DNA of 64,000 bases from Candidatus Omnitrophota bacterium. Lineage in GTDB: Bacteria > Omnitrophota > Gorgyraeia > B26-G9. The translations under genes were made by a program, and so were the position numbers. Position 1 is the first letter of the stretch. The number at the start of each line of letters is the position of its first letter. The notes below the pieces were generated by a model that was given only the letters and a program-made list of their open reading frames with translations, did no database searches and was not told the origin of the DNA. The stretch spans positions 5,077-69,076 of the forward strand of contig JBDRJV010000047.1 of assembly GCA_043814605.1 (NCBI GenBank), given 5' to 3'. Below are positions 1 through 61,710 of the stretch, one piece after another.

Positions 1-350
1 GTGGTGATTCATCAGAAAAAATGATTTCTTTATTAAATAGCAATAAAAATGTGGGGTTATTTCCTGAAGGTGGTTGTAGTTATGATGGAAAACTAAAAGC
101 TTTCAAAAATGGAGCAGCTCTTTTAGCTATGCGGACAGGGAGGCCCATTGTACCCTGCGCAATTGTAGGAACTTATGAATCATTACCCGTAGATGCAAGC
201 TTTCCCAAATTATTCTTACCAATTATAATAAAAATAGGCAAACCAATTTATCTTTTAAAAGAATTTGATGAGATTATTGAAGATATTGATTTACAGGAAG
301 GAATTTTAAAAGTGAGAAATTCAATAAAGGCTATGCTCAATGCAGGATAA
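1..350 (+). CDS. lysophospholipid/1-acyl-glycerol-3-phosphate acyltransferase (PlsC-like), 5'-truncated by window edge
   Basis: Reading frame is open from position 3. The FPEGG (PlsC-type FPEG) acyltransferase motif sits near the N-terminus of the visible part, so the gene starts upstream of the window. Confidence 0.65.
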   Translation, partial: GDSSEKMISLLNSNKNVGLFPEGGCSYDGKLKAFKNGAALLAMRTGRPIVPCAIVGTYESLPVDASFPKLFLPIIIKIGKPIYLLKEFDEIIEDIDLQEGILKVRNSIKAMLNAG

Positions 351-1908: not shown

Positions 1909-1941
1909 TAATTAATGTTTCTTTACTTTTAAGGATTGTTT

Positions 1942-2802: not shown

Positions 2803-2813
2803 AAGGGGAGAAT

Positions 2814-4100: not shown

Positions 4101-4103
4101 AAT

Positions 4104-19367: not shown

Positions 19368-20213
19368 ATGGCAAGACCATTAAGAATAGAATATGACGGA
19401 GCAGTATATCACGTAACATCGCGAGGTAATGCGAAAGAACCTATCTTTAAGAATGCTGAAGATAGGTTTAATTTTTTTGAAGTACTAGCAGAAGCAAAGA
19501 AAAAGCATAATATTATATGTCATGCGTATTGTTTAATGGATAATCATTATCATTTAGTTGTGGAAACTCCTGAGGGAAATTTGAGTAGGGCAATGAGGCA
19601 TATAAATGGAGTTTATACGCAAAGTTTTAACCGCAAGCATAAAAGAGTAGGTCATGTGTTTCAAGGTAGATATAAAGCGATGTTGGTAGATAGGGATGAA
19701 TATCTATTGGAAGTAATTAGATATGTGGTTTTAAATCCCGTACGAGCTGGATTAGTTAAAAGTGCGGAAAAATGGCAATGGAGTAGTTATTGTGGAACTG
19801 TGGGGATGAGCAAAAAAGAGAGATTTCTGGATACAGATTGGGTGTTGGAATATTTTGGAGGCACAAAAAATATTGCTCAAAAAAAATACCGAGAATATGT
19901 AGATGAGGGAATTGAAAAAGAAATAGTAAAGAAAAAGATTAGTCAGCAGAGTATTCTTGGCAGTGAAAGTTTTAAGCAAAAAATCTCTAAGTATGTGCAA
20001 GGGAAAAAAGAAATAAAAGAAATTTCAAGGTGCCAACGTTATGTGGGACGTCCTCAATTAGAAGATATTTTTAAGGGAGCGCAAAAAGTCAAAGCAGAAA
20101 GAAATGCTTTAATTAGAAAAGCAATAACAGATTACGGGTATCAGCAAAAAGAGATAGCGCAGTGGTTGGGGATGCATTATACCAGCGTAAGTAAAATACT
20201 AAGCAGGGAATAA
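19368..20213 (+). CDS. IS200-like Y1 (HUH) transposase, REP-associated (RAYT)-like, with C-terminal DnaA_C-like HTH
   Basis: HUH motif HYHLVVET. Catalytic-Tyr region GRYKAM. The C-terminal ~80 aa resemble the DnaA C-terminal DNA-binding domain. Paralog at 43640. Confidence 0.7.
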   Translation: MARPLRIEYDGAVYHVTSRGNAKEPIFKNAEDRFNFFEVLAEAKKKHNIICHAYCLMDNHYHLVVETPEGNLSRAMRHINGVYTQSFNRKHKRVGHVFQGRYKAMLVDRDEYLLEVIRYVVLNPVRAGLVKSAEKWQWSSYCGTVGMSKKERFLDTDWVLEYFGGTKNIAQKKYREYVDEGIEKEIVKKKISQQSILGSESFKQKISKYVQGKKEIKEISRCQRYVGRPQLEDIFKGAQKVKAERNALIRKAITDYGYQQKEIAQWLGMHYTSVSKILSRE

Positions 20214-28636: not shown

Positions 28637-29557
28637 TTAACTTCTATAGTCTAGTTGCGATAAACGGGATTCGATAATACGCAAAAAATCTTTTTTTTCT
28701 TGATCCGTAAGCCGGGAATTATTAACAAGCTCTTTGATGTTGCTGATTTTAGTTAAAATATTTTTAAAGCAGGTTTCAGTTTTAATGCCTAGATAATCCG
28801 CAAAATATTTAAAGTCAGCGTAAGTGATTTTATTTTTTTTACCGTTTAAAGTCAAAGCCAGATCATCTTCATCAGGAATTACCAGTTTTGTACAAACGAT
28901 GTCATAAGCCGGGCTTAAGCGGATGCGGCCTTGCGGGGTGTAAATCAGGGAAAAGTTTTTTAGATGAGCGTCCCCGTTGCCGATTATGAAAAAAAGCAGG
29001 ACTCTTTCGAAAAATAACTGCACATCCAGTCCCGGGAATTCAGACGAAGTTTTTATTTTTTGGCCGATTTTTTCTAAGGAACATTTATATTTACCTTCTT
29101 CGGTTAAGATCTGCATAAAATCTTCCATGTGCAGTTTTTCTTTTTTATCCCGGTCAAAACGTTTTACGATGTAAGCCGTGCTATTATCAGCCAACTGGAT
29201 TAAAGTATGCGAGGGCACTGCTATTCCCAGATTATAGGCAATGTTCATGCAGAGGTTTTCATTCTGCGGGATATTCGGAAAAGTTTCTAACTGAGGTTTT
29301 AAAATATATTCACCGTTTTCCTGGGCAACTTCTAATTTTTTATTTTTTCGGTTGAGTTTTAGGGATAGTTTTACTTGTACTCCGGAGATAGACATTTTTC
29401 CCGCCATATCCTGAGCTTTGAGTGATATATTTTTTAAATCAATATCAATTTTGGGAAAATAATCCGTGTTAAAAAGCTTTTTTAAACAGCGGGAATGATA
29501 TTCAGAATCATTTTTAGTTTTTATTCCGCAAAAATCACAATACTTATTCATGAACAA
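28637..29557 (-). CDS. hipT: HipA-family Ser/Thr kinase toxin lacking the N-terminal subdomain (HipT-like)
   Basis: Gly-rich loop SISGVQVKLS, catalytic loop GNGDAHLKNFS, SPAYDIV. 306 aa. Overlaps the upstream 109-aa gene by 14 nt. Confidence 0.75.
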   Translation of the reverse strand: MFMNKYCDFCGIKTKNDSEYHSRCLKKLFNTDYFPKIDIDLKNISLKAQDMAGKMSISGVQVKLSLKLNRKNKKLEVAQENGEYILKPQLETFPNIPQNENLCMNIAYNLGIAVPSHTLIQLADNSTAYIVKRFDRDKKEKLHMEDFMQILTEEGKYKCSLEKIGQKIKTSSEFPGLDVQLFFERVLLFFIIGNGDAHLKNFSLIYTPQGRIRLSPAYDIVCTKLVIPDEDDLALTLNGKKNKITYADFKYFADYLGIKTETCFKNILTKISNIKELVNNSRLTDQEKKDFLRIIESRLSQLDYRS

Positions 29558-29873
29558 TCATTTCCTCGATAGACACCGCGCCGATAGTATCTTTACAGGT
29601 ACTCAGTAATATTTTGAAAGAATCACTTTTGTCAATTTTTAACTTTTTGGATACAATATCTAAATACCAGCCTTCAGGGATTAAGCCTTTAAAAAACGGG
29701 AACATTTTTTCGCTGGTATATGTTTTCTGATTAATCGGCAGGGAAAGGGAAATCCCTAAAGAATTTTTGATAAATTCATCATCATAAGTAAATTTATAAC
29801 CGGTTTGGGTTTTTTCCAGGATTCCGGCTAAAATATTATTAAATTTTACAATCGCCTTAGGGTTGTTTTTCAT
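29544..29873 (-). CDS. hipS: HipA N-terminal-subdomain-like small protein (HipS-like)
   Basis: 109 aa. Position and size match the HipS component of tripartite hipBST loci. Overlaps both neighbours. Confidence 0.6.
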   Translation of the reverse strand: MKNNPKAIVKFNNILAGILEKTQTGYKFTYDDEFIKNSLGISLSLPINQKTYTSEKMFPFFKGLIPEGWYLDIVSKKLKIDKSDSFKILLSTCKDTIGAVSIEEMIVHE

Positions 29874-33693: not shown

Positions 33694-33896
33694 CATAAGT
33701 GGAACAAAAGTTTGCTCATTAAGAAAAAAATTTAAAAATTTGAATTGACTCGCCAAAAAGCGTGGCGTATAGGTCGCAAATAAAGCAACTGTAGATTTAA
33801 TGAAGAGCTTAAGTATAAGCTCATTTTCCCCGATACTTAAACATTTGAAAATTTTGAAAAAATTTTCTGCATAAGTTTCGGGATAAATTCGCGCAG

Positions 33897-33946
33897 ACAG
33901 CTTATGTCGCTTGATAAGCTCCATAAGTTGTGCGCTCATTTAGGAG
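33897..33946 (+). promoter_or_regulatory. conserved 5'-leader hairpin motif (copy 1) immediately upstream of the RBS of the tail-fibre-like gene
   Basis: CAGCTTATG-N15-CATAAGTTG stem followed by GTGCGCTCATT and the RBS. The homologous motif sits upstream of the RHS gene. Confidence 0.55.
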
Positions 33947-33952
33947 GGGAAT

Positions 33953-34969
33953 ATGAAAAAGTTAGCAGTTGTAGTTTTGGTGATTGGATTAGGAATTATT
34001 GTTGATTGTGCAAATATATTTGCTGGAGATGGAGATTTGATTGTGGGGGGGAATCTTGGTATTGGCACAGCAACTCCATCTGAGAAATTAGAGTTGGGGG
34101 TTTTAGGTGTTCCTGCATTTATAAAAATCTCCGGAGGACATCCCGGAGGTTCAGAAGCAGTTGGTTTAAAATTAAAAAGTTATTACCGTAATTGGAAAAT
34201 GGTTGTCAATGATAATCCAGTAACCAGTACTACAGGGCTACAACTTTGGGATGGAACTAATGTTAGATTACAGTTTACAGATAACGGATATGTTGGTATT
34301 GGCACAGTAACTCCATCTGAGAAATTAAAAATTAGTATCCCGGGAGTTTCGACATTTATGAAAATCACGGGTGGCAATCCTGGCGGAGGATCAGAAGCAG
34401 TGGGTGTGAAATTAAGCAGTCCTTATCGAAATTGGAGAATAGCTGTAAACGATGATTCGGTGCGTAGTACTGCAGGATTACAAATATTTGATGGGGCAAA
34501 TATCCGTTTGCAAATTGCAGATAACGGATATTTAGGAGTTGGGACAATAGCTCCGAGCCGCAAATTATTTGTAAACGGTGATGCGGGTGGATTAACACCT
34601 TGGTATAGTGCATCAGATGAGCGTTTAAAGAAAAACATTAGTACAATTGATAGCGCTCTAGATAAAGTTATGCAATTGCGGGGTGTGAATTTTGAATGGG
34701 ATGAGGCAGTTATCGAAGAAAAATACAAATGTAAGAAAGAAGCAAAAGATAAGCAAAATAAAACAAAATATTTTACAGAAGGAGTGCAAATGGGGCTTAT
34801 TGCCCAAGAAGTTGCCGAAGTAATTCCGGAAGTTGTTTCCACCGACGGAGAGCATTATTCGATTTGTTATGCGAGCATGGTCGGAATTCTCGTGGAAGCA
34901 GTCAAAGAACAGCAGGCGCAAATTCAGGATTTACAGCAAAGAGTAAATTATTTAGAGGGGAAAGAATAA
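33953..34969 (+). CDS. secreted tail-fibre-like repeat protein with C-terminal intramolecular-chaperone (peptidase S74) autoproteolytic domain
   Basis: Signal peptide. Three ~55-aa internal repeats (GIGTxTPSEKL...GG.PGG.SEAVG.KL). C-terminal SDERLKKNI...GVNFEW...MGLIAQEV motif of endosialidase/tail-spike chaperone domains. Confidence 0.7.
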   Translation: MKKLAVVVLVIGLGIIVDCANIFAGDGDLIVGGNLGIGTATPSEKLELGVLGVPAFIKISGGHPGGSEAVGLKLKSYYRNWKMVVNDNPVTSTTGLQLWDGTNVRLQFTDNGYVGIGTVTPSEKLKISIPGVSTFMKITGGNPGGGSEAVGVKLSSPYRNWRIAVNDDSVRSTAGLQIFDGANIRLQIADNGYLGVGTIAPSRKLFVNGDAGGLTPWYSASDERLKKNISTIDSALDKVMQLRGVNFEWDEAVIEEKYKCKKEAKDKQNKTKYFTEGVQMGLIAQEVAEVIPEVVSTDGEHYSICYASMVGILVEAVKEQQAQIQDLQQRVNYLEGKE

Positions 34970-35035
34970 GAAAACCAGAAAAACGAAAAAATATTTTAAT
35001 GAACAGGCAACCTCTTAACCAAAGGGGAAAAAAAA

Positions 35036-36417
35036 TGAAATTCTATAAATCTTTAATATTACTTTTTCTCTTACTTGTAATTTTTTCTCAGGGTTTGCCA
35101 GTATTGGCGCAGACGCTTTTTCCTATTAGAATTTTAGAAAATCCATCATTAACTTTTTCTACTTTGCAATCTGCCTATAACCAGGCGCAATCTGGCCAGA
35201 CAATTCAATGCCGCGCTGTAACTTTAAATGAATCAGTTACTCTTAACCGTGATATTGCGGTTACGATTTGCGGCGGCTATAACAGTGATTTTTCGCAAAA
35301 AACAGATGCAGTAACAGTTTTAATCGGCGGAGTTGCTTTAAACAGCGGTACAGCAATTTTGGATAATTTATCAGTTTCTTTTACGGACACGCAAACTGTT
35401 CCGGATACGCCGACTTTAGTGGAAGTCAGATATTTGGACACAAAAGTTTACTTAAATTGGAGCAGTGTGAATAATGCGGATGGATATATTGTCAAATACA
35501 GTACAACCAGCGGAACTTATACTTATACTGAATACATTGAAGCTGGTACAAGCCATGTGGTCACAAATTTAACGAATAATACGCAATATTATTTTGTGGT
35601 GAGCGCGTATAATGCGAGCGGCGTAAGTGATAATTCTAATGAATTAAGTGCGATGCCCCAGCCGCGGGAAGCAATTGCCGGCTATGAAACAGTATTTAGT
35701 AATGTTTCAACAAATGGGCTTTTTGCCGCCATGCCGATTATTATGAGTGAAGATGGGACGATTACCAGTATTAGTATGTTCCATAAAGCTGGCACAGGCT
35801 CTATGGTGTTAGGAATTTATAGCGGAGCAAATTCTCCCCAAACTTTACTAGCTACAACTCAAACCACAGCGATTGAAAATACAACAGGCTGGCAAACCAT
35901 AACGTTACTTAATCCTGTGCATGCGGAAAATGCAGAAACAATTTGGATAGCTTGGCTTTATTCGGTTAATCCCGGGATTCGCTATACAACAGGCGAACCG
36001 TCAGCTTATGCTTGCGGTGATAATTGGGATTCTTTAGGTGGTACAATGCCGGCTAATTTTCCCGCAAGTGGTGATTCCACTGTAATCGCTTCCTTATATA
36101 TAAATTATGTGCAAAACCAGCCGCCGCATATTACTGAACTTATTCCGGCAAATACAGCAACTCAAGAAGAAACAGATACCTTGACTTTTGAAGTTACTGC
36201 CAGTGATTATCATTTTGATCCGATTGAATATCAATTTGTAATTGATGATAATATTGTGCAATCCTGGACAAGTACAAATACTTATAATTGGGATACGCAG
36301 GAGAGTGATTTTGGCAAGCATTCTTTTAAAGTGCAAACTCGGGATGATATCGGCGCGCAGGAAGAGTCTGCTGTGCGCGAATTATTTATTTATCACAAAC
36401 CAATTTCAATAGAGTAG
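35036..36417 (+). CDS. secreted protein with fibronectin type III domain
   Basis: Signal peptide MKFYKSLILLFLLLVIFSQGLPVLAQ. FN3-like block (YLNWSSV..DGYIVKYS...YYFVVSAYN). Confidence 0.6.
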
Positions 36418-36484: not shown

Positions 36485-36558
36485 CCCGAGAAATTCAGGG
36501 GAATCTCCGGGACTAAATCCTGGAAATGCTTGGCATTTCACAGGGCAATTCGCATAGA

Positions 36559-36604
36559 TCACTTATGTCGTTAGTGCTCCATAAGTGATGTGCTCATTGA
36601 GGAG
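36559..36604 (+). promoter_or_regulatory. conserved 5'-leader hairpin motif (copy 2) immediately upstream of the RHS toxin gene
   Basis: ATCACTTATG-N12-CATAAGTGAT stem followed by GTGCTCATT and the RBS. The stem differs from copy 1 by compensatory changes. Confidence 0.55.
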
Positions 36605-36610
36605 ATGATT

Positions 36611-39600
36611 ATGAAAAAAATATTATTTAAATCCATGTCTGCGGTTCTGGCTGTAACCTGTTTTTTAAGTTTTACATTTAATGGATTAACCATTGCTAAG
36701 GCTGGCGAAAGCTCAGCTAGTATTGCCGCGAGTGGTGCGATTACACCGGGCGGAGCAACCAGTATAAACTTTTCCATGAATTCATTTCAAACCGATCTTT
36801 TCCGCGGTAATGCCTCTTATTCTGTGCCTATTGCAGTGCCTGGTGGCCGCAAAGGAATATCTCCTCAACTAGGTTTAAGTTATTCCAGTCAGCCGGCAAA
36901 TTCCTGGTGCGGTGTAGGCTGGAGTTTGGAGCTGGGTGCAATCACCCGCAGTATGAAAAATGGGTATCCCAAATATGACAGTACAGATATTTTTTCCTAT
37001 AACGGCGCAGAATTAGTAAATACAACTGGTAATGAATATCGTTTAAAAACAGATAATGCGTTTATGCGGTTTTTTAATAACGGTTCAACTTGGGAAGTAC
37101 TGGATACTAAGGGAACAAAATATAATTTTACAAGTACAATTACAACGCCATTGGGAATTTATCAATGGTCTTTAACCCGGGTGACTGATCTAAGTGGGAA
37201 TTATATGAGTGTGACTTATATTACGGATCAAAATCAGGTTTATCCGCAGCAAATTCAATATACAGGCAATGATAATACCAGTGCTGTGCCTTATTATACA
37301 GTTGATTTTGTTTTAGAAAATAGAACTGATACAATCACGCAGAATTTAATCATGCCCATTGCCAATACATCCGGCCCGGCAACTATTTTTAAAACTGTTA
37401 CTGCTAAAAGACTAAAAACTATTGAAGTTAAATACAGCGGGTCATTGATCAGAAAGTACATATTAAATTATCATGATAGTGCTGTTACTAAGCGATCAAT
37501 GCTTGAGAGTATTACATTATATGGCGAGGATGGGATAACTGCTTTAAATCCCATAACTTTTACTTATGATGAAACTGTTCCCTCGATTAATGCTTCAACC
37601 GGAGTTAATTTAAATACAGTACAAGGTAGCCCATTAATGGGTGATTTTAACGGTGATGGAATTAATGATATTTGTGTTGCTTTATATGAAGATTTCGGAG
37701 TTTATTTAGGTAATGCTGATGGAACTTTTCAATCTAGATCTATTTGGGGACATTATCCAGGATCAGATGCAGGAGCTTCTTTTTTTTCAACAGGAGATTT
37801 TAACGGTGATGGTTATACAGATATTTTTAATTTATTAGCATGGGGAAATGGTTGGGAAAACTATGGATTAATTGTGTACTTATCTGATAATGGAACAGGA
37901 TTTAAAAATGAAGCTTATTGGTATAGAGACACAAGGTCATTTTCTACACAAAGGCAACCGCTTGTTTTTTCTACTGATGTAAACAAAGACGGTAAAACCG
38001 ATATACTAGTTTTAGATAAGTATAGTGGAATATATAATCCGCCTCAAAGTAATGTGCCGGATATAAAAGGAAAATTCTATGTTGCTAATGACAATGCAAA
38101 TGGCTTTAATATCAGTGATCTGGAAAGTAATCTTTTTGTGGGAGAATATGGTAATTTTATGACCACTATAGGAGATGTAAACGGAGATGGAGAGTTAGAT
38201 ATGGTGTTTGGTTGTCATGGAGCAAATCTTGTAAAAGTTGCTTTGTATCCAGATTATATTTCAGGAAATATTATATCTCCTTATGTTTGGTTGTCCGGAC
38301 ATTTAATTGATAGCAATATAATAACCACAGATGTAAACTATGATGGTAAAAGTGATTTTTTAAGATTTTACTCACCTCAAGGGAATTGGGATTGTTTTCT
38401 TTCTAATGGAGCTAATTTTGAATCAAATTATCAAACCTGGTGCTCTTCATTTGGTGGGACAAGATGTCCAATTGCAGGTAATTTTGGTACTTCTAGCGTA
38501 ACAGTTCCCGGGACTTTTTATAATAATACTCATAATGGCACAGCAGAATGGCAGATTGCTCAAGCAACTTCAGCTAATGCACGTGCAGATTATTTATTAA
38601 GCGTGGATAATGGTGTTAGCGGAAGCTTAGACATAAATTATACACAATATCAAGAAGATACATTGCCGTTTATTCATTATGTGGTCGAATCCATTACTCA
38701 AAATGACGGCAGGGGAAATAGTTATACATCCAGGTATGAATACAGCGGCGCGCAATATGACCGCCAGGACCGGGAATTCCGCGGGTTTAATTGCGTGAAA
38801 GTTCTGGATGCGGATGGAAATTATTCTTTGAATTATTTTCATCAGGACGATATCTTAAAAGGTAAAACTTATTTATCAGAAACTCGTGATGCTGCGGGTA
38901 ACCTTTACGCAAAATCAGAAAATATTTGGGCAAGCACACAGCCATTTACCGGGGTTTATAATATTTTTGTCACCCAGCAAAATAATTATTCCTATGAAAC
39001 TCAAGCCACTCCCAAGCACACCCGGATGAATTATGATTATGATAGCTATGGCAATTGTACTTATGTGGGTTGTGAGGGATATTTAGATATTAGCGGTGAT
39101 GAAAAAACAGTACATACACAATATTATGCTCCGGCTGCGAATATTACATGTTTGCCTAGCCATACCTGGACACAAAATAGCAGCGGTTACAAAACTTCTG
39201 AGCAGTGGTTTGAATATGACGGAGGGACAAGTCTTTCTCACGGATTGCTGACAAAGCAGACTTCCTGGTTAGAGGGAGGGACTAATCCTGATGTTGAATA
39301 CACCTATGATGATTACGGCCAGGTGATTGAAGTAAAAGATGCCCTGTCTCGGACAACGACAACAGAATATGATAGCGCACAGCATTTATTCCCTATAAAA
39401 ATTACCAATGCTAAGGCACAGGAAATAACTTCTACTTATAATCCTAAAACCCAGCAGGTATTAACAATAACTGATGCTAATAATCAAACTACAACTAATC
39501 AGTATGATGTGTTCGGCCGCTTAATAAAAGTTATTGGGCCCAATGACACTGCAGCTTATCCCAGTGCCAGTTACAGTTATGATTTGAATGCAAATCCCAT

Positions 39601-42600
39601 AAAAGTTACATCCAATACCAAAATCACAGACAGCAATTATTTAACCAGTTATTCTTTTTATGACGGTATGGGTAGATGCATTCAATCCAAATCACCGGCG
39701 GAAAATTCTAATCAGCAGGTTGTCAGCGGCGCGGTTGTCTATGACACCAGAGGGTTAGTTAGCGAAACATATTTTCCGCATTTTGCAGCAGCTTCTGCGA
39801 ATTATTCCACGCCGGATTTAAATCAGCCAAAAACCACATTTAGCTATGATGCAATGGGTAGAGTGATTCAAACTCAAGCTCCGGATGGTACAATTTATTG
39901 TAAAGAATATGACATTAGCAAGATTACGGCAACTATTGAGTATCAAGGAGTAGAATTACAAAAATCAGTTTCCTATTTTGATGCTTACGGCCAGTTGACT
40001 TCTAAAGAAGAACATAATCAGGGTGAAATTTATACCACAACTTATGCTTATGATACATCAGGTAATTTAAAAACTCTTACAGACAGCCAGGGCAATGTTA
40101 CCACAATTAACTATGATACTTTAGGCCGGAAGGTTTCCATGAATGATCCGGATATGGGAACATGGAGTTACAGTTACGATATTTTAGGTAATTTAATTTC
40201 CCAAACCGATGCCAAAAATCAGCAGATAACATTTACTTATGATGAATTAAACCGTTTGTATTTAAAAAATTATGTTTCAGCCGGGCAGACGATAACCTAC
40301 GAATATGACAGTACCAGTAAAGATTATTGCATTGGCAGGCTTTCATCAGTTAACTATCCATCAGGTTCAACAGAATTTTATTATGATAACTTAGGGCGGG
40401 AAATAAAATCCGAGAAAACTGTTTCCGGGACTACCTATACCGTAGAACGCACTTATGATGCTTTAAACCGCTTAGATATTCTGACTTATCCGGACGGAGA
40501 AAAAGTAAAATACAATTATAATCTTTCTGGGGCAATTGAATCTATTGAATATGACCGGGACGGAGACACTACCTTTACAGCCCAAGGCACATATTTAGTT
40601 GATGTGGATTATAATGTTAACGGCCAAATGACTGATGTTACTTTTGGCAATAATGTGTATACAAATTATACTTATGATAGTAATACTTTGCGTTTAAGTA
40701 ATCTGTTAACCAATTCCGGGGCAATCCAGGATTTAAATTATCAATTTGATCATTTAGGTAATGTTACTAATATTACAGGCGTTGCCAATAATAAAACAGT
40801 TAATCAGGCGTTTACATACGACGGTTTAAGCCGGCTGACCGAAGCAAATAGCCCGTCAACCTACGGCACTTATCAATATTATTATGATTCCATTGGAAAT
40901 ATAGATTATAAGGTAGAGAATGCAACTACCACAAATTATACTTACGGAAGTTCCCGTCCGCATGCAGTAACGCAGTTTGGAGATAAGACAATCACTTATG
41001 ATGCTAATGGAAATATGCTTTCCAAAGGTGATTTGAATTTTGATTATGATGATGAGAATAGATTAACCCAAGTTACCATTGATGATCCGTATCCGGTAAC
41101 CGCGGAAAAAACAATCAGCCTTCAAGAGGGGTGGAATTTCATTAGTTTTCCGGTGGAGTTTGCAGATTCAACCATTACAACTGTACTTTCATCAATAGCA
41201 AGTGATTACGATCAGGTATCAAGATATAACAATGCAACAGGTGAGTTTGAGCATTTCGTGAAAAATCCGGACTACAATGATTTTAGCGAATTTGAATATG
41301 GACGGGGGTATCAGATTCATATTACTAATGCCGCTGGTGTAAACCTTGCAGTTAGCGGAACAGTTCCCACTAACCATGAAGAAGTTTTAAATGCTGGGTT
41401 AAACTTAATTGTTAATCCCAAATTAGCTACAGCAACAATAGAAGATGCATTAGCAGATTTAAAAGATCAAGTGCATTATGACACTGTTTACAAATACAAC
41501 ACAACTACAGATGTATTAGAGTCTGTAGATCCAAAGACAACTAATGTAAATGTTGGTGAGAGTTTATTTATAAATATTAAAAACGATGTTACCTGGGTAA
41601 TAAATAAGAAACTTGGTACAACAACTTATACCTATGATGGTGATGGCGGTAGAACAAAGAAGGTAGTTACTGGAGGATTAAGAAATAGTTCAACCGTTTA
41701 TATTGGATCACTATACGAAGAAGAAACTGTTGATGGAAATACTACAACTAAGAATCATATTTACTTTAGAAGGAAAAAATTAACAACAAAACAGGATAAT
41801 GGAACTACGGTTAAAACTTTGTATTTCCATGAAGATCATCTTGGTAGCAGTAATGTAATTACTGATTCTAATGGTCAAGTAGTACAGCATGTTGAATACG
41901 AACCGTTTGGTAAAGTAATTCTTGAAGAAAAAGACGAGGAATTATATACTAATTATAAGTTTACTGGTAAGGAGTGGGACGCATCTGCTGAATTGTATTT
42001 CTACAGTGCCCGCTACTTTGACCCTGATCTTTGTAAATTTATTACGCCGGATAGTATGGTTCCATATCCAGATGATCCGCAAAGTTTTAATCGGTATTCT
42101 TATTGTGACAACAATCCTGTGAATTATGTAGATCCGAGCGGGCATTTTTTCTGGGCTGCTGCATTGATTGGGGCAGCTATAGGAGGAATTACAGCAGCTG
42201 CAACTGGTGGAAATGTTTGGCAAGGGATGTTAGGTGGATTTATTGGTGGTGCTATATTCTGTGGTATTGGAAATATGGGACTTGCTGGCTTAGATAAAAT
42301 TGTTGCACATACTGCTGGAGGAATGATTTCGGGTGGTGTTAATTCTGCAATTAGCGGTGGTGATATTGGAATGGGAATTATTTCTGGTGGACTAAGCGCA
42401 GGTGTTGCTTCGTGGGCAGGTGAATCTTTTGGAGAATTATTTAGTCCGATCGAAGGACAAATTGTGAAAAATGGCATAAGAAGAACTGCTTTAGGTTCAT
42501 TAACTGGAGGTGTAGTTAGCAAAACAATGGGTGGAGATTTCTGGGATGGAGCTAAAAATGGGTTCTTGACTAGTGCTATCGCCTATGCTTGTAATGATGT

Positions 42601-43021
42601 TTATCATTTGTTTAAATCCAATAACGGTGGTACGCCTCATGCAGGTGCTATTGTTGGAAAAGATGGTAAATATACATACCATTCTTTTGGTCCAGACGGA
42701 AAACCGAGACCACTAGGACCGGGCGAGTATACTGAAAAATCTTTTAATTCTTGGGAAGACGCAAAAGCATATGCATTAGAACAAGGTTATGAAGAATTTG
42801 CTAGATATGATACATCAAGCAGTGAAGATGCCGCAGCACGAGCAGCAGCTCGAGGATATAAAGGGACTGAATATAATGTTGGAGCAAATAATTGTCAGCA
42901 TATGGTAAATGATATGTTTTTAAGTGTTCCTAGAATTCCGTTTGTAGGAAGAGGACACCCTAAATTTAGTTTTAATGAACATAAAAGAGCTGGAGTTGCA
43001 GATGAGTACGGTAAATTTTAA
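36611..43021 (+). CDS. RHS/YD-repeat polymorphic toxin (SpvB-like N-terminus, FG-GAP/VCBS-like repeats, YD repeats, RHS core, C-terminal LRAT/NlpC-P60-like domain)
   Basis: Signal peptide. SpvB-type motif FRGNASYSVPI. Repeated GDFNGDGxxDI FG-GAP-like units. Many YD repeats. RHS core ending ...YCDNNPVNYVDPSGH. The tail contains a Gly-rich hydrophobic stretch followed by HAG...NNCQHMV. Confidence 0.85.
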   Translation: MKKILFKSMSAVLAVTCFLSFTFNGLTIAKAGESSASIAASGAITPGGATSINFSMNSFQTDLFRGNASYSVPIAVPGGRKGISPQLGLSYSSQPANSWCGVGWSLELGAITRSMKNGYPKYDSTDIFSYNGAELVNTTGNEYRLKTDNAFMRFFNNGSTWEVLDTKGTKYNFTSTITTPLGIYQWSLTRVTDLSGNYMSVTYITDQNQVYPQQIQYTGNDNTSAVPYYTVDFVLENRTDTITQNLIMPIANTSGPATIFKTVTAKRLKTIEVKYSGSLIRKYILNYHDSAVTKRSMLESITLYGEDGITALNPITFTYDETVPSINASTGVNLNTVQGSPLMGDFNGDGINDICVALYEDFGVYLGNADGTFQSRSIWGHYPGSDAGASFFSTGDFNGDGYTDIFNLLAWGNGWENYGLIVYLSDNGTGFKNEAYWYRDTRSFSTQRQPLVFSTDVNKDGKTDILVLDKYSGIYNPPQSNVPDIKGKFYVANDNANGFNISDLESNLFVGEYGNFMTTIGDVNGDGELDMVFGCHGANLVKVALYPDYISGNIISPYVWLSGHLIDSNIITTDVNYDGKSDFLRFYSPQGNWDCFLSNGANFESNYQTWCSSFGGTRCPIAGNFGTSSVTVPGTFYNNTHNGTAEWQIAQATSANARADYLLSVDNGVSGSLDINYTQYQEDTLPFIHYVVESITQNDGRGNSYTSRYEYSGAQYDRQDREFRGFNCVKVLDADGNYSLNYFHQDDILKGKTYLSETRDAAGNLYAKSENIWASTQPFTGVYNIFVTQQNNYSYETQATPKHTRMNYDYDSYGNCTYVGCEGYLDISGDEKTVHTQYYAPAANITCLPSHTWTQNSSGYKTSEQWFEYDGGTSLSHGLLTKQTSWLEGGTNPDVEYTYDDYGQVIEVKDALSRTTTTEYDSAQHLFPIKITNAKAQEITSTYNPKTQQVLTITDANNQTTTNQYDVFGRLIKVIGPNDTAAYPSASYSYDLNANPIKVTSNTKITDSNYLTSYSFYDGMGRCIQSKSPAENSNQQVVSGAVVYDTRGLVSETYFPHFAAASANYSTPDLNQPKTTFSYDAMGRVIQTQAPDGTIYCKEYDISKITATIEYQGVELQKSVSYFDAYGQLTSKEEHNQGEIYTTTYAYDTSGNLKTLTDSQGNVTTINYDTLGRKVSMNDPDMGTWSYSYDILGNLISQTDAKNQQITFTYDELNRLYLKNYVSAGQTITYEYDSTSKDYCIGRLSSVNYPSGSTEFYYDNLGREIKSEKTVSGTTYTVERTYDALNRLDILTYPDGEKVKYNYNLSGAIESIEYDRDGDTTFTAQGTYLVDVDYNVNGQMTDVTFGNNVYTNYTYDSNTLRLSNLLTNSGAIQDLNYQFDHLGNVTNITGVANNKTVNQAFTYDGLSRLTEANSPSTYGTYQYYYDSIGNIDYKVENATTTNYTYGSSRPHAVTQFGDKTITYDANGNMLSKGDLNFDYDDENRLTQVTIDDPYPVTAEKTISLQEGWNFISFPVEFADSTITTVLSSIASDYDQVSRYNNATGEFEHFVKNPDYNDFSEFEYGRGYQIHITNAAGVNLAVSGTVPTNHEEVLNAGLNLIVNPKLATATIEDALADLKDQVHYDTVYKYNTTTDVLESVDPKTTNVNVGESLFINIKNDVTWVINKKLGTTTYTYDGDGGRTKKVVTGGLRNSSTVYIGSLYEEETVDGNTTTKNHIYFRRKKLTTKQDNGTTVKTLYFHEDHLGSSNVITDSNGQVVQHVEYEPFGKVILEEKDEELYTNYKFTGKEWDASAELYFYSARYFDPDLCKFITPDSMVPYPDDPQSFNRYSYCDNNPVNYVDPSGHFFWAAALIGAAIGGITAAATGGNVWQGMLGGFIGGAIFCGIGNMGLAGLDKIVAHTAGGMISGGVNSAISGGDIGMGIISGGLSAGVASWAGESFGELFSPIEGQIVKNGIRRTALGSLTGGVVSKTMGGDFWDGAKNGFLTSAIAYACNDVYHLFKSNNGGTPHAGAIVGKDGKYTYHSFGPDGKPRPLGPGEYTEKSFNSWEDAKAYALEQGYEEFARYDTSSSEDAAARAAARGYKGTEYNVGANNCQHMVNDMFLSVPRIPFVGRGHPKFSFNEHKRAGVADEYGKF

Positions 43022-43571
43022 AGGGGTTTTGAGTTTAGGGGAATATAACATGTTAAAAATAATTGGAGGTATAATCGGTATCTTCATTATTGCATCTTCA
43101 GGGCTGGCTGGCAATGATTGGAGTATTAATTTTTATGATGAAGCGCAAAAATTAATTCAAGAATTTCATGAAAAAGAATACGAGCAACTATTAAAACTTG
43201 ATCCTAAAACGAAAGATTTTATAGAAATAGATGCTTCTTTTAATGCGGTTGTAAGCAAGCTAAATCGTAGAGCATTTGTATTAAAGATAAATGATTCTTC
43301 TGTCAAAATTGACTGGTCAGATTATTGGGAATGGGCTTTTTGGACAGTATCAAAAGAAGAACAAGAAGAGTTAATTAGGAAGGATTCAGAATATAAAGAA
43401 ATCTATAATGAGTATCTTCGGTTAAAAGAAATCAAGAAACAATCTGTAAATGAAACAAAAATTAGAAATCAGCTTTATAAAGATAATTCGGAAACGTTTT
43501 ATTATATAGAAGAAGAGTTTGCTAACAAATTAAAACTGTTGCAAAAAAAAGTAGATAAAAAAAGACAGTAA
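43002..43571 (+). CDS. candidate cognate immunity protein of the RHS toxin (signal/TM-anchored)
   Basis: Starts within the last 20 nt of the RHS gene with a GGAG RBS. An alternative ATG is at 43050. N-terminal hydrophobic helix. No recognisable domain. Confidence 0.45.
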   Translation: MSTVNFKGVLSLGEYNMLKIIGGIIGIFIIASSGLAGNDWSINFYDEAQKLIQEFHEKEYEQLLKLDPKTKDFIEIDASFNAVVSKLNRRAFVLKINDSSVKIDWSDYWEWAFWTVSKEEQEELIRKDSEYKEIYNEYLRLKEIKKQSVNETKIRNQLYKDNSETFYYIEEEFANKLKLLQKKVDKKRQ

Positions 43572-43580
43572 TAGTAATAG

Positions 43581-44651
43581 GGGACGTAGTTAGATAATTA
43601 GATATTGACAGGAATAAAAAGTAATGATAGAATGAGTATATGCCAAGGCAAGGAAGAATACATATAGAAGGCGGTATATACCACGTTATTCAGCGGGGGA
43701 TAGAGCGGCGAGAGATATTTAAAGATGATGAAGACCGGGAGGAATTTTTAAAGCGGCTTGAAGAAGGATTAAGATATACAAGAGATAAATGTTATGGTTG
43801 GGTGTTGATGCCCAACCATTTTCATTTAGTGATCAGAACAAGTTTGATGCCATTGAGTGATTTGATGAGAAGATTACTTACCGGATATGCGCTATATTTC
43901 AATAAAAGGCATAAGCGAAGCGGATATTTGTATCAGGGAAGGTATAAATCGATCTTATGTCAAGAAGACGCATATTTGTTGGAGTTAATAAGATATGTGC
44001 ATTTAAATCCGCTGCGAGCAGGGATGGTAAAAGAAGTAAGTGGGTTAAGGGGATATAAATGGAGCGGGCATGTAGAATTGGTAGGATCAAATAAATGGGA
44101 GTGGCAATCTACAGAAGATATCTGGGGTTTATTTGGAAAAAGAAAAAATAAAGCAATAAAGAGCTATGAGGAATTTATTATAGAAGGGGTAGGAAACGTA
44201 AGAAAGGGAGAATTTTCCGGAGGGGGTTTAATCCGGAGTATTGGAGGCTGGAAAGAGGCAGAAAAATTCCGAAGGGAAAAATGGCTGCAGGAAGCAGATG
44301 AGCGGATATTAGGAGATGGAGATTTTGTTAGCCAAACATTGCAAGAAGCCGAAGAAAAAATGGAACGCCGGGAAAAACTTAAACAAGATGGTTGGGATAT
44401 TGAAAGGGTAATTCAAAAGGTATGCAAATTGATGGATGTTTCTTCAGGGGAAATAAAACGTGAGAGCCGCAGGAGCAGGGTGGCGCAGGCAAAGAGTGTG
44501 GCCGTATATTTAGCAAATAAGGAATTGGGGATAAGAGGATCTGAGCTTGCTGAGTATTTTGAAATAACGCGAGCTTCGATAAGCGCCTCGATACAAAGGG
44601 GGAAAAAGATTGTCGAAGATAATGAATATCTAATTATCTAACTACGTCCCT
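43581..44651 (+). mobile_element. 1.07-kb element bounded by perfect 24-bp terminal inverted repeats (GGGACGTAGTTAGATAATTAGATA) carrying the Y1 transposase gene
   Basis: Left IR at 43581-43604, right IR at 44628-44651 (reverse complement identical). The right IR overlaps the stop of the transposase ORF. Confidence 0.6.
43640..44641 (+). CDS. IS200-like Y1 (HUH) transposase, RAYT-like, with C-terminal DnaA_C-like HTH
   Basis: HFHLVIRT HUH motif. GRYKSIL Tyr region. C-terminal VAQAKSVAVYLANKELGIRGSELAEYF resembles the DnaA C-terminal domain. Confidence 0.7.
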   Translation: MPRQGRIHIEGGIYHVIQRGIERREIFKDDEDREEFLKRLEEGLRYTRDKCYGWVLMPNHFHLVIRTSLMPLSDLMRRLLTGYALYFNKRHKRSGYLYQGRYKSILCQEDAYLLELIRYVHLNPLRAGMVKEVSGLRGYKWSGHVELVGSNKWEWQSTEDIWGLFGKRKNKAIKSYEEFIIEGVGNVRKGEFSGGGLIRSIGGWKEAEKFRREKWLQEADERILGDGDFVSQTLQEAEEKMERREKLKQDGWDIERVIQKVCKLMDVSSGEIKRESRRSRVAQAKSVAVYLANKELGIRGSELAEYFEITRASISASIQRGKKIVEDNEYLII

Positions 44652-44739
44652 AATTATATATACAGGCGGTAAGCTTCAGTTTTTTTAACTTGCAGTTTAT
44701 ATTTTTTTTCATTACACAATAAAATACAGAAAGGTTTTT

Positions 44740-58303: not shown

Positions 58304-59176
58304 GTGAGGCCAATTATGAGTTATTATAAAATTTTAGGATTTAAAAAAGAACCGTTTTCAACTAGTCCTGACCCTTTGTTTTTTTATGAATCACGCGAAC
58401 ATGAAGCAGCTTTAACTAATTTATTAATTGATTTAAGATTAAAAAGAGGGTTGAGTGTGATTCTCGGGGATGTGGGAACAGGTAAAACCACATTAAGCCG
58501 AAAACTCTATCAGCAGGTAAAATCACAAGAAGGGTTTATTTGTCATATGATGTTAGATCCCGTATACAATGACGAGGAAGTTTTTCTAACATCTTTAACC
58601 AGAAACTTTGATGTGGGGACAAGTAATGAGGGGCCGAAAAGCTTGAATTTAAAAGAGGCTTTGGAACGGTTCTTGTTCCAAAAAGGGGTTGAGGAAAAAA
58701 AGACCATTGTTTTGATTATTGATGAGGCGCAAAAGCTGAATGAATTGACGTTAGAGTGTTTAAGAGTTTTATTGAATTATGAGACGAATGAATATAAGCT
58801 GTTGCAGCTTATTTTACTGGGACAAATGGAATTACATTCAAAAATAATATCAATCCCGAATTTTATTGATCGAATCAGTTTTAAATATACATTAAATCCT
58901 TTGGACGAAACCGAAATGCGCCAAATGATTGATTTTCGCATTAAACAGGCCGGATATAGTTCAAACATGCAGTTGTTTTTAGATAAAGCATTAAAAGCAA
59001 TCTATGATCATACCCGGGGGTATCCAAGACGGGTAAATATGCTTTGCCATAAAGCGCTTAAACGTTTGGTGATGAGAAATAAATTTATTGTAGATGAGGT
59101 GTTGGTTAGAGAACTTATTGTTGAGGAAGTTGCGCAAGGGTTGGTTTGGGTCAGGCAGCCGACAATTGTAAATTAA
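58304..59176 (+). CDS. ExeA/GspA/MshM-like AAA ATPase
   Basis: LGDVGTGKTTL Walker A, IIDEAQ Walker B. About 290 aa, as in ExeA/MshM. Confidence 0.75.
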   Translation: MRPIMSYYKILGFKKEPFSTSPDPLFFYESREHEAALTNLLIDLRLKRGLSVILGDVGTGKTTLSRKLYQQVKSQEGFICHMMLDPVYNDEEVFLTSLTRNFDVGTSNEGPKSLNLKEALERFLFQKGVEEKKTIVLIIDEAQKLNELTLECLRVLLNYETNEYKLLQLILLGQMELHSKIISIPNFIDRISFKYTLNPLDETEMRQMIDFRIKQAGYSSNMQLFLDKALKAIYDHTRGYPRRVNMLCHKALKRLVMRNKFIVDEVLVRELIVEEVAQGLVWVRQPTIVN

Positions 59177-59191
59177 AATTTTTAGAAAATC

Positions 59192-59869
59192 ATGGCAAAT
59201 AAAAATTTTTCACCGGAAAAACGTTTATTGCAGATTATTGAGTCTCAAGAAAAAACAGATGATTCTAATCTTTCACCGATAAATGAAGCAAAAAAAATTG
59301 TTTCACCCAGTTTTTTAAAAGCAAAATTTTCTTTTTTGCTTAGCCGGCTAAAAAATATTCCGGGGAAAAGTACAAAATTAAAGCTCGAGTTAGAAACAAT
59401 AAATAATGTACTGCAGGTATTGATTGTTGCTGGTGTAATTATATTAGGGATAAGTGTAACGCTTAGTTTTAATAAGCTGAATAAAGGCATTATAATTAAG
59501 GATAATGAATTAGAGGCAAATGCAGAGATAAACTTGAGTGAAATTGTATCTTTGCTTAAACCGGTAGAATATTATTTGGAAAAAATAAAAAAACGCGATT
59601 TGTTTAGCCTGGAGACTGCTGCAGAAGTGAAAAAAGGCAGGTTTAAAGATGCGGAAGAACCAGGTTCCTGGTTAGCTGAGCGTGTGAAAGATTTAAATTT
59701 AGTCGGGATTTCCTGGTCACAAGATCCGGATGCAATTATTGAAGATAAAAAATTTGAGCAGACTTATTTTGTGAAAAAAGGTTATATGATTGATGAAATC
59801 GAAGTTTACGAAGTGCTTGAGGACCGGGTAGTTCTTCGTGCAAGGGGAGACAAAATAGAACTAAAATGA
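59192..59869 (+). CDS. membrane protein of unknown function (single TM), pilus/secretion-cluster associated
   Basis: One TM helix (LQVLIVAGVIILGISV). Overlaps the secretin start by 4 nt. Confidence 0.4.
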   Translation: MANKNFSPEKRLLQIIESQEKTDDSNLSPINEAKKIVSPSFLKAKFSFLLSRLKNIPGKSTKLKLELETINNVLQVLIVAGVIILGISVTLSFNKLNKGIIIKDNELEANAEINLSEIVSLLKPVEYYLEKIKKRDLFSLETAAEVKKGRFKDAEEPGSWLAERVKDLNLVGISWSQDPDAIIEDKKFEQTYFVKKGYMIDEIEVYEVLEDRVVLRARGDKIELK

Positions 59870-61674
59870 AAATATTTTTTAAAGGGTTATTTATTGTTTT
59901 ATTTAATATTGTGCTGGTTATTTTATGCTTTGCTGAACCAGTCTCGCCGCCGGTTTTAACGACAGAACCGCAGCCGAAAGTTTCGCCTTTAGTCGAAGGA
60001 ATACAAGGTACTATTTCCCTGGATTTACGCAAGATTAATATCGATGATGCGTTAAAGTATTTTTCCCTTAAAAGCGGATTGAACATTGTCACGACAAAAT
60101 CAGTTACCGGACGGGTAACGCTTGTGGTTAAGGATGTTCCGGTACAGGATGTTTTTGATATTATGCTGCGTTCAAATGGGTTGGCTTATGACAAAATCGG
60201 AGATATTTATAATGTTATGAGCCAGGATGAATATAAGGTTATTTATGGTAAAAGGTTTTCGGATATCCGGGAAGTAAAAGTTTTTCGCTTAAATTATGCA
60301 ATGCCAGAACAGGCTTTTAGCATGCTGGATACAATGAAAAGTGATATTGGAAGAATCCTGGTTGACCAGGAAACAGGCACTGTGCTTTGCATGGATTCTC
60401 CGGAAAAATTAGAGCAGATGGAAGCGGTAATGAAAGAGTTTGAAAAAGAAAATATTACCCGGATTTTTCAGCTAAATTACGCGAAAGCACTCGAAGTCGA
60501 AGGCCATTTAAGAACGCAGCTTAATAATAAAAATGTTGGTTCAATCCGGGCAGATGAAAGATCTAACCAAGTTATTGTACAGGCTTTTCCGGAAAGAATG
60601 AAAGAAGTAAGAAGATTAATTGAAGCTTTAGATGTAAAAACAAAAGAAGTTTTAATTGATGCCAAAATTTTGAAAATAAATTTGGATGATAGTGTAACAA
60701 CCGGAATTAAATGGGAAGGATTATTCGACGTTTCGGAAAAAAAAGGTTTAACCTATATCGGGTCTACACCGTTTACTTCTGTGCAGGCAACAACGGATGA
60801 TTGGCGTTCAAGGCAGCAAGTTTTAAATGATGTGGGTAATGTTGGCTCCTATCCTTTTAGCGGGACAACATCAAATTATTCCAGCGGCCAATCTTCAATT
60901 GGTATTGATAAAATGCATATTGGCATGATTGGTGCACATGATTTTGATGTTACATTACAATATTTGAAAACAGTTACTGAGGCAAAAATCCTCTCTAACC
61001 CGAAAATTGCTGTGGTTAATAACCAGGAAGCCCGGATTCATGTCGGAGAACGCCAGGCCTATGTTACGACAACGACTACCAGCGGCCAATCAACAAGTAC
61101 GATTTCGGAAGAAGTAAATTTTATTGATATCGGTATTCAAATGGATGTTGTCCCGACAATCAATGAGGACGGGTTTATAAGTATTAAACTCAAGTCTGAA
61201 GTTAGTAGTGTGATCAGTGTTTTAATTACGCCGACAGAAAATCAAATCCCGATAATCGATACCTCCTTGGCAGAAACAACGGTGTTAGTAAAAGAAGGAG
61301 CGACAATTGTTATTGGCGGGTTGCGTAAGGAAGAAAAAACAAAATATGTCCAGAGAGTGCCAATATTAAGTAAGATCCCTTTGTTCGGGTTATTATTTCA
61401 AAATAAAACTGACGGCAAAACTATTACAGAATTGCTGATCATGATTACTCCGACGATTATTACAGGAGAAACATTAATTGCTTCTGAATCTAAAGAGGTT
61501 GGCCTGCCGAATATTAAACCGGCACAGCAATATGAGGATGTTGAGCGGATTAAAAAAGAGCAAGAAACTTTTATGCCTCCGCCGCCGGAAAGTAATTTCG
61601 GAGGCATGCAGCTTAAAGGGGCAAAGGCTTACAAAAATTACGAAGGATTCGAAGATTCTCAAAATAAAAAATAA
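59866..61674 (+). CDS. secretin (GspD/PilQ/MshL family)
   Basis: Signal peptide. Secretin_N-like region. C-terminal secretin core (ILSNPKIAVVNNQEARIHVG...VPILSKIPLFGLLF). Confidence 0.85.
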   Translation: MKIFFKGLFIVLFNIVLVILCFAEPVSPPVLTTEPQPKVSPLVEGIQGTISLDLRKINIDDALKYFSLKSGLNIVTTKSVTGRVTLVVKDVPVQDVFDIMLRSNGLAYDKIGDIYNVMSQDEYKVIYGKRFSDIREVKVFRLNYAMPEQAFSMLDTMKSDIGRILVDQETGTVLCMDSPEKLEQMEAVMKEFEKENITRIFQLNYAKALEVEGHLRTQLNNKNVGSIRADERSNQVIVQAFPERMKEVRRLIEALDVKTKEVLIDAKILKINLDDSVTTGIKWEGLFDVSEKKGLTYIGSTPFTSVQATTDDWRSRQQVLNDVGNVGSYPFSGTTSNYSSGQSSIGIDKMHIGMIGAHDFDVTLQYLKTVTEAKILSNPKIAVVNNQEARIHVGERQAYVTTTTTSGQSTSTISEEVNFIDIGIQMDVVPTINEDGFISIKLKSEVSSVISVLITPTENQIPIIDTSLAETTVLVKEGATIVIGGLRKEEKTKYVQRVPILSKIPLFGLLFQNKTDGKTITELLIMITPTIITGETLIASESKEVGLPNIKPAQQYEDVERIKKEQETFMPPPPESNFGGMQLKGAKAYKNYEGFEDSQNKK

Positions 61675-61710
61675 AATATAAAATGGACAATTAAAAATTG
61701 AGGTTAGCTT

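Follow-up and report, generated by a model that had tools for sequence, protein, structure and literature searches.

Analysis of a 64-kb stretch of contig JBDRJV010000047.1 from a Candidatus Omnitrophota metagenome-assembled genome (MAG), the whole of which is referred to here as the window, revealed an intact, uninterrupted gene for an RHS protein on the forward strand at positions 36611–43021, encoding 2136 residues followed by a stop codon. We interpret the product, with a probability of roughly 0.7, as a Sec-exported RHS polymorphic toxin that is built as a TcB–TcC-style fusion and carries as its payload a TseH-like, permuted NlpC/P60 cysteine hydrolase acting in the cell envelope. From its N-terminus to its C-terminus, the chain comprises a putative Sec signal peptide, an SpvB domain, FG-GAP repeats, a TcdB_midN domain, RHS repeats, the Rhs core, a 147-residue spacer and a 144-residue C-terminal domain. 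A preliminary description of this DNA had already recognised an RHS polymorphic toxin with an SpvB-like and FG-GAP-containing N-terminus, and this is borne out by Pfam and NCBIfam matches above their cut-offs and by TcB/TcC-like matches in the PDB; the gene it described is the same, although the length of 2137 residues that it gave had counted the stop codon. Overall, the system is of a standard kind, an RHS polymorphic toxin whose tip is of the NlpC/P60 type, and the locus has two peculiarities, a Gly-rich spacer and a non-canonical open reading frame (ORF) downstream.

A conserved family of C-terminal toxin domains

The 291-residue tail that follows the Rhs core consists of the Gly-rich spacer (residues 1846–1992) and a globular domain (residues 1993–2136). 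An exhaustive phmmer comparison of the domain with 1.84 billion cluster representatives, at a cut-off of E ≤ 1e-3, identified 62 relatives, 17 of them at E ≤ 1e-10. A word-index homologue search with the tail returned no match, not even to the protein itself, which is present in the collection, so that this negative carries little weight; the single tail sequence likewise gave no match among PDB sequences. Most of the 62 relatives are short fragments from the C-terminal end of RHS proteins. A DPxG motif lies no more than 45 residues upstream of the GH motif in at least 42 of them, and the end of the domain is regularly found about 40 residues past the Cys. Short forms, in which a signal peptide and a core fragment precede the toxin, are common among these relatives. 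One locus (L004; JGI Ga0654651_0028289, positions 205–4822) holds an array of short proteins that have the same signal peptide and RHS-core fragment and differing C-terminal toxins. Downstream of each lies a small exported gene of its own. Among the toxins in this array, two belong to the family of the domain described here.

Conservation was counted in an alignment of 58 homologues of the domain (alignment A1). The Cys is invariant (58/58), and the His, Asn and Ser are retained in 56, 55 and 54 of the sequences, respectively. Besides the Cys, the positions conserved at 90% or more are, in domain numbering, the G-H pair, Tyr31, Ser33, Tyr68, Tyr96, Asn102 and Pro125, and the family signature can be written GH...Y.S[FY]G...NCxxMV. 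With an invariant Cys and a near-invariant His in 58 homologues, we conclude that the motifs are not a product of chance. Those quoted in the preliminary description are all present, namely DPSGH at residue 1841, the Gly-rich hydrophobic segment, HAGAIVG at 2010 and NNCQH at 2093. Of the two boxes that it took to be catalytic, HxG and NCxH, the His of the first and the Cys of the second are conserved as above, but the Gly of the first is found in 26 and the His of the second in 10 of the 58 sequences.

The AlphaFold2 model of the domain, calculated with alignment A1, has a predicted local distance difference test score (pLDDT) of 95.5 and a predicted template-modelling score (pTM) of 0.90. His18 of the domain (His2010 of the protein) starts the strand formed by residues 18–25, and Cys103 (Cys2095) starts a later helix, residues 103–112, which is the permuted papain-like arrangement. 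Comparison of the model with the PDB using Foldseek gave TseH (6v98) as the sole credible match (E = 1.6e-3, probability 1.00, TMq 0.67), the next matches having probabilities below 0.5. A profile search of PDB sequences led independently to the same entry (E = 0.0057), with the GH and NC motifs aligned and Ser2025 placed on Glu81 of TseH. The catalytic triad of TseH is Glu81–His64–Cys172 (PMC11160734). The RTE1, C97, TseH and LRAT families have been grouped together as permuted NlpC/P60 families, and Cys-His-Ser triads are recorded in papain-like families (PMC10318531).

Sub-threshold Pfam matches among the 58 members are to RTE1 (20 members), C97 (11), TseH (7), LRAT (6) and Lnb_N (one). The domain in the window scores 14.5 bits against PPPDE/Peptidase_C97 (PF05903; cut-off 29.2) and 13.1 bits against LRAT (PF04970; cut-off 24.3), and has no match to TseH (PF25218) at E ≤ 1; the best E values reached by any member are 5.2e-5, 0.017 and 0.044, respectively. 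The triad and box residues of the named families are not reproduced either. For the Glu-His-Cys triad of TseH, the His and the Cys align but the Glu81 position is Ser in 54/58, and for the His-His-Cys triad and NCEHF box of LRAT, the second-His position is His in 15/58 and the position two residues after the Cys is His in 10/58. Since the weak matches all fall within permuted NlpC/P60 families and all are sub-threshold, we conclude that the domain lies in the permuted NlpC/P60 branch as a member of no named family; it is a family that the Pfam and NCBIfam libraries searched do not name. The LRAT/NlpC-P60 papain-like assignment made earlier thus stands at the level of the superfamily, supported by the model and the TseH match, and is not supported at the level of LRAT. 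The preliminary description had said that it would be abandoned if the tail bore no resemblance to papain-like folds or if its Cys and His varied among homologous tails; the tail does resemble the papain-like fold of TseH, and both residues are conserved.

The gene downstream of the toxin

The ORF that follows the toxin gene has two possible start codons. Translation from the ATG at 43002, with GGAG 6 nucleotides (nt) upstream, gives 189 residues and a 20-nt overlap with the toxin gene; translation from the ATG at 43050, the start chosen by NCBI, with AGGGGA 8 nt upstream, gives 173 residues and begins 28 nt past the toxin stop. A plausible ribosome-binding site precedes both starts, and the overlap therefore depends on the one chosen. 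The product has a hydrophobic segment at its N-terminus, followed by a charged helical region. A homologue search retrieved the protein itself only, no Pfam, NCBIfam or PADLOC family was matched, and no relative was found in GTDB representative genomes; a single-sequence AlphaFold prediction was unusable (pLDDT 44.6).

The downstream gene was also read at 12 related loci (L001, L003, L004 with two copies, L005–L009, L010, L011 and L012). In 11 of these, the gene immediately downstream of the toxin belongs to one family (alignment A3), the twelfth giving a marginal match only. Full-length A3 members have 157–211 residues. A hydrophobic segment resembling that of a signal peptide or a lipoprotein opens 10 of the 11 and precedes a P..v..FY..L motif; the called start of one member, L011_157, leaves the hydrophobic segment out. 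No Pfam model describes the family. In a second Omnitrophota MAG (L010), whose toxin is 54% identical to that in the window, the A3 gene overlaps the toxin stop, and in the closest metagenomic relative (L007, 52% identity) it lies directly downstream. A dedicated exported partner of this kind points to a toxin that acts outside the cytoplasm, in the cell envelope.

The ORF in the window falls outside this family. That it is a divergent one was suggested by a shared 'FY' after the signal peptide and was rejected on an hmmsearch E value of 0.6 and an hhalign probability of 0.07%. The immunity gene reported in the preliminary description is therefore correct in its 189-residue length and 20-nt overlap if translation starts at 43002, and is weakened as an immunity assignment. 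There is a substantial chance, though in our judgement somewhat short of even, that the ORF is an unrelated small exported protein and that the true A3-type gene has been lost or is located in another part of the genome. The presence of A3 in 11 of 12 related loci, including the two with the toxins just mentioned, argues for this, as does an insertion sequence (IS)-like element that begins 4 nt past the ORF stop, so that the region has been rearranged. The ORF is, however, the only one between the toxin gene and this element, is oriented with the toxin gene and closely spaced to it from either start, has a ribosome-binding site and begins with a signal-like hydrophobic segment, as A3 proteins do; moreover, no A3 gene or remnant was found in the six frames of the window. 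By position and export signal, we consider the chances that the ORF encodes an immunity protein to be about equal either way.

The IS-like element spans 43575–44656 and is bounded by 32-nt inverted repeats that are 94% complementary. Its gene (43640–44641) encodes a Y1 (IS200-like) transposase domain fused to a DnaA C-terminal helix-turn-helix. The notion of an immunity gene split by the element was rejected, as no ORF continues past the right inverted repeat. A second Y1_Tnp gene, at 19368–20213, is not flanked by the 32-nt repeats.

Site of action and substrate

The toxicity of TseH is confined to the periplasm and is countered by TsiH, the product of the gene downstream, and orthologues of TseH fused to YD repeats exist (PMC4453574). 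Among related permuted enzymes, the substrates are peptides, isopeptides or lipids (PMC10318531). Action of the toxin would most likely take place outside the cytoplasm of the target bacterium, where an amide or ester bond of the envelope would be cut. Because TseH is the closest relative, an amide bond of the cell wall is favoured: the probable substrate would be the peptide stem of peptidoglycan, with an acyl bond of a lipid or lipoprotein as the second candidate.

A lipid substrate would be expected if the tip were a phospholipase A or acyltransferase of the LRAT/HRASLS type, or a C92- or Lnb-like acyl-amidase of lipids or lipoproteins, and the toxin killed by way of membrane lipids. We consider this unlikely. 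The weak LRAT and Lnb_N matches described above lean this way, and CLN5 appears in the Foldseek list with a TMq of 0.49. Permuted NlpC/P60 families that act on lipids include LRAT and C92 (PMC10318531) and Lnb, which has a TseH-like periplasmic domain (PMC11160734). An exported immunity protein would suit a lipid target in the envelope as well as it suits the cell wall, the hydrophobic spacer could carry the enzyme to a membrane, and the substrate of TseH itself is not biochemically defined. Set against these points are the low LRAT score, the scarcity of the NCEHF-type His and of the second His in the family, and a toxin protein that has no C-terminal membrane anchor. Furthermore, TseH, the only credible structural match, causes cell rounding and bursting when expressed (PMC4453574). 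The lipid-targeting effector of the preliminary description is consequently not supported, its one credible structural neighbour being thought to attack the cell wall, and a lipid target is an open possibility only.

The Gly-rich spacer

Hydropathy along the spacer, averaged over 19 residues, is mostly between 0.5 and 1.8, and GxxxG-like runs recur in it. Its GGxFWxGA motifs are common to one relative, P0050, and a second, P0058, has a comparable Gly-rich stretch; most relatives of the toxin domain have no such spacer. A family search returned only a weak match to DUF637 (E = 0.036). We speculate that the spacer has a role in membrane insertion or translocation. A more radical interpretation makes residues 1846–1992 a glycine-zipper toxin that depolarises membranes, the membrane-anchored downstream ORF its immunity protein and the hydrolase a second payload. 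The repeated GxxxG-like runs and moderate hydrophobicity accord with this, glycine-zipper toxins with membrane immunity proteins are known in EsxX (PMC12744356) and Cdz (PMC5380434), and the window departs from most relatives in its downstream ORF as well as in its spacer. We nevertheless judge it improbable: P0058 keeps an A3-type downstream gene (E = 2.3e-6) despite its comparable spacer, the sole family match is weak, the composition is of low complexity and the argument draws on two or three loci. P0058 likewise led us to reject the idea that presence of the spacer is tied to loss of the A3 partner.

The N-terminal half, RHS shell and core

Matches of the RHS protein to Pfam and NCBIfam models were judged against the curated cut-offs, which are passed by SpvB, FG-GAP, TcdB_toxin_midN, the RHS repeats and Rhs_assc_core (Table 1). 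RHS_repeat (PF05593) matches 11 stretches with 120 bits (cut-off 22) and TIGR01643 (YD_repeat_2x) scores 65.7 bits (cut-off 15.8); the RHS_core model, at 98.7 bits against a cut-off of 2000, is below threshold. GDFNGDG-type codons are repeated in the FG-GAP region of the gene. The Rhs core ends in PVNYVDPSGH, the DPSGH being residues 1841–1845, with His in place of the Leu of the PxxxxDPxGL consensus. The best PDB sequence matches of the protein are TcdB2–TccC3 fusions (E = 7e-26), Rhs proteins of type VI secretion systems (T6SS) and YenB, and those of the Rhs-core region are to the TcdB2–TccC3 core. Just before the core, the shell is interrupted by an insert of about 180 residues (approximately 1510–1690) made up of two related units that start GWNFISFP and GLNLIVNP. 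The insert is not RHS-like, and searches of Pfam and the PDB with it gave no credible match; it might serve in binding as a domain displayed at the surface.

We hold it highly improbable that the protein serves as the BC part of an ABC (Tc-type) toxin directed at eukaryotic cells, with the TcA pore encoded elsewhere. In favour of this reading, SpvB, the FG-GAP propeller, TcdB_midN and the Rhs core match TcdB2–TccC3 and YenB, and Omnitrophota have been characterised as predators or as dependent on hosts (10.1101/2023.11.21.568195). Against it, canonical TcB and TcC are not known to have a Sec signal peptide, whereas the RHS protein has a putative one; no TcA was found in the window; and the toxin family has in bacteria an exported partner dedicated to it, which implies that the target is the bacterial envelope.

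Table 1. Positions in the window of the RHS toxin gene, its encoded domains and the ORF that follows it
Feature	Position	Strand	Basis
RHS toxin gene, 2136 residues, MFH1460771.1	36611..43021	+	ORF list, translation, exact match in protein collection
Putative Sec-type signal peptide, residues 1–31 (MKK, hydrophobic core, AKA/G end)	36611..36703	+	reading of the translation
SpvB-type N-terminal domain, residues 65–147	36803..37051	+	PF03534, 64.8 bits (cut-off 22); PDB: TcdB1 and YenB N-termini
FG-GAP repeats/beta-propeller, residues ~345–600, end approximate	37643..38410	+	FG-GAP_3 (PF13517) 48.6 bits, FG-GAP 36 bits
TcdB_toxin_midN, residues 647–738	38549..38824	+	PF12256, 50.4 bits (cut-off 24.8)
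RHS/YD-repeat shell, with non-RHS insert at 41138–41680	38825..41896	+	11 RHS_repeat stretches, YD_repeat_2x, sub-threshold RHS_core
Rhs-associated core, residues 1763–1845, presumed self-cleavage boundary	41897..42145	+	TIGR03696, 75 bits (cut-off 32.5); cleavage presumed
Gly-rich, moderately hydrophobic spacer, residues 1846–1992, GGxFWxGA motifs	42146..42586	+	hydropathy scan
Toxin domain, residues 1993–2136, predicted TseH-like permuted NlpC/P60 cysteine hydrolase	42587..43018	+	homologues, alignment, AlphaFold2 model, Foldseek
His2010 codon, predicted catalytic His	42638..42640	+	His in 56/58; aligned to TseH His64
Ser2025 codon, predicted third triad position	42683..42685	+	Ser in 54/58; aligned to TseH Glu81
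Cys2095 codon, predicted nucleophile	42893..42895	+	Cys in 58/58; helix start in model; aligned to TseH Cys172
Downstream orphan ORF, 173 residues (NCBI ABIG64_10470), or 189 from 43002	43050..43571	+	immunity candidate by position and export signal

Secretion and delivery

The predicted signal peptide implies that the RHS protein would be exported to the periplasm by the Sec pathway. No T6SS, PAAR, VgrG or TcA gene was found among the 46 larger ORFs of the window that were scanned; the RHS protein has no Pfam match to PAAR or prePAAR, and its neighbours have none to PAAR, VgrG or a chaperone of T6SS Rhs effectors. The preliminary description had said that the window holds no secretion genes, which is accurate for these components and overlooks a secretin cluster at 58304–63882, some 15 kb downstream of the RHS gene. 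The cluster encodes an AAA_22 ATPase (ExeA/MshM-like), a weakly T2SSC-like protein, a Secretin+STN protein (59866–61674) and a TPR protein, and nothing ties it to the RHS gene. Giant genes of Omnitrophota have been noted beside type II secretion homologues (10.1101/2023.11.21.568195).

Genomic setting

The product of the RHS gene matches exactly NCBI entry MFH1460771.1, annotated as "RHS repeat-associated core domain-containing protein" from a Candidatus Omnitrophota MAG. The entry lies on a contig of 76.7 kb and forms a singleton cluster in the protein collection. The sequence GAGGAG lies 5' of the ATG at 36611, the start also chosen by NCBI. Genes nearby encode a lipid A acyltransferase, an outer-membrane beta-barrel protein, PriA and Fmt, from which we conclude that this is chromosomal DNA of a diderm bacterium; its G+C content is about 35%.

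Directly upstream of the RHS gene, at 33953–36417, are two genes for secreted-looking proteins, the listed ORFs of which overlap by about 100 nt. The first, starting at 33953, encodes a Peptidase_S74 (tail-fibre chaperone) domain and contains an internal 171-nt tandem duplication (34144–34554); the second encodes fn3, DUF4082 and Big_7 domains. A leader of about 75 nt is common to the RHS gene (36543–36618) and the Peptidase_S74 gene (33885–33960), extending through the ribosome-binding site into the first codons. Its 23-nt core occurs twice in the window, where 0.01 copies are expected by chance. Both copies of the leader can form the same hairpin (ACUUAUG...CAUAAGU with an extended stem), in which three or four of the differences between the copies are compensatory, and an Rfam search gave no credible match. 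The leader may be a shared regulatory element. Elsewhere in the window are a split HipA-like toxin kinase on the reverse strand (28637–29873), consisting of two adjacent ORFs with Couple_hipA and HipA_C, as well as genes for four seven-transmembrane histidine kinases and three DUF4143/AAA_14 ATPases.

A model for toxin action

By analogy with the Tc and Rhs families, the SpvB domain, the FG-GAP propeller and the RHS shell would together enclose the C-terminal tail, which would be freed by self-cleavage at the Rhs core, at PVNYVDPSG/H. The 144-residue payload would then act as a circularly permuted NlpC/P60-type hydrolase through a predicted triad of Cys2095, His2010 and Ser2025, TseH being its closest solved relative. 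More speculatively, the Gly-rich spacer would aid its insertion into, or translocation across, a membrane. The exported product of the downstream ORF would be the sole candidate for self-protection in the window, though it is not the usual partner of the family.

Several points weigh against this model. The triad of Cys, His and Ser is a predicted one, and TseH itself has been reported to be inactive in vitro, so that its substrate is not biochemically defined (10.1101/2021.05.27.445954). Every Pfam match of the toxin domain is below the gathering threshold, and directly before the catalytic His the protein in the window has Pro where 55 of the 58 relatives have Gly. Finally, both a delivery partner and the usual A3 partner are absent from the window.

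A bolder version of events, which we regard as doubtful, would treat the domain as part of an undescribed Cys-His-Ser clade of permuted papain-like enzymes with its own exported A3 immunity proteins. Here, A3 would have been replaced by the unrelated orphan, which would neutralise the toxin differently; or the toxin would serve predation without protection of kin and, being Sec-secreted and without an injection machine, would depend on the Gly-zipper spacer as a self-contained module for entry.

On the model that we prefer, of an envelope-acting NlpC/P60-type tip, the RHS repertoire gains a defined toxin-domain family of at least 62 clusters together with a partner immunity family, neither of which passes a Pfam or NCBIfam model. 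The structural link to TseH, whose substrate is unsettled, means that a more tractable relative could help to define the cuts made by this NlpC/P60 branch. The locus also documents an RHS weapon, without an injection system in its vicinity, from Omnitrophota, which have been described as a predatory phylum. It leaves the current understanding of RHS toxin function unchanged.

Comparison with known systems

The payload most resembles TseH (VCA0285), the T6SS effector of Vibrio cholerae (6v98, PF25218), with which it has in common the permuted NlpC/P60 fold, the order of a His strand before a Cys helix and the aligned GH and NC motifs. TseH is an antibacterial, periplasm-acting protein with an adjacent immunity gene and YD-repeat-fused orthologues (PMC4453574). 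The two differ in that sequence identity is about 14% and Ser takes the place of Glu at the third triad position; moreover, TseH is free T6SS cargo, whereas the domain in the window is the tip of an RHS protein behind a Sec signal. The LRAT/HRASLS (PF04970), PPPDE/DeSI (PF05903, C97) and RTE1/TMEM222 (PF05608) families share with it the circularly permuted NlpC/P60 arrangement and the N-C nucleophile motif, but scores against them are below the cut-offs, the second His of LRAT and the His of NCEHF are not conserved, and a membrane anchor is lacking.

The remainder of the chain follows the Tc TcB–TcC proteins (TcdB2–TccC3 and YenB/YenC) in its SpvB N-terminus, FG-GAP propeller, TcdB_midN domain, RHS shell and core placed before a variable payload. 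It departs from them in being fused into one chain that carries a signal peptide, in an insert of about 180 residues in the shell and in the absence of a nearby TcA, and its payload looks antibacterial rather than like an ADP-ribosyltransferase. With T6SS Rhs effectors such as Tse5, RhsA and Tre23, it shares the RHS shell, the Rhs core, the DPxG boundary and a C-terminal toxin; the immunity gene that follows those toxins has a candidate counterpart in the window. Where those systems have PAAR, prePAAR or VgrG, none of which is present in this protein or in the window, the Omnitrophota protein has instead a Sec signal and a TcB-like N-terminal half.

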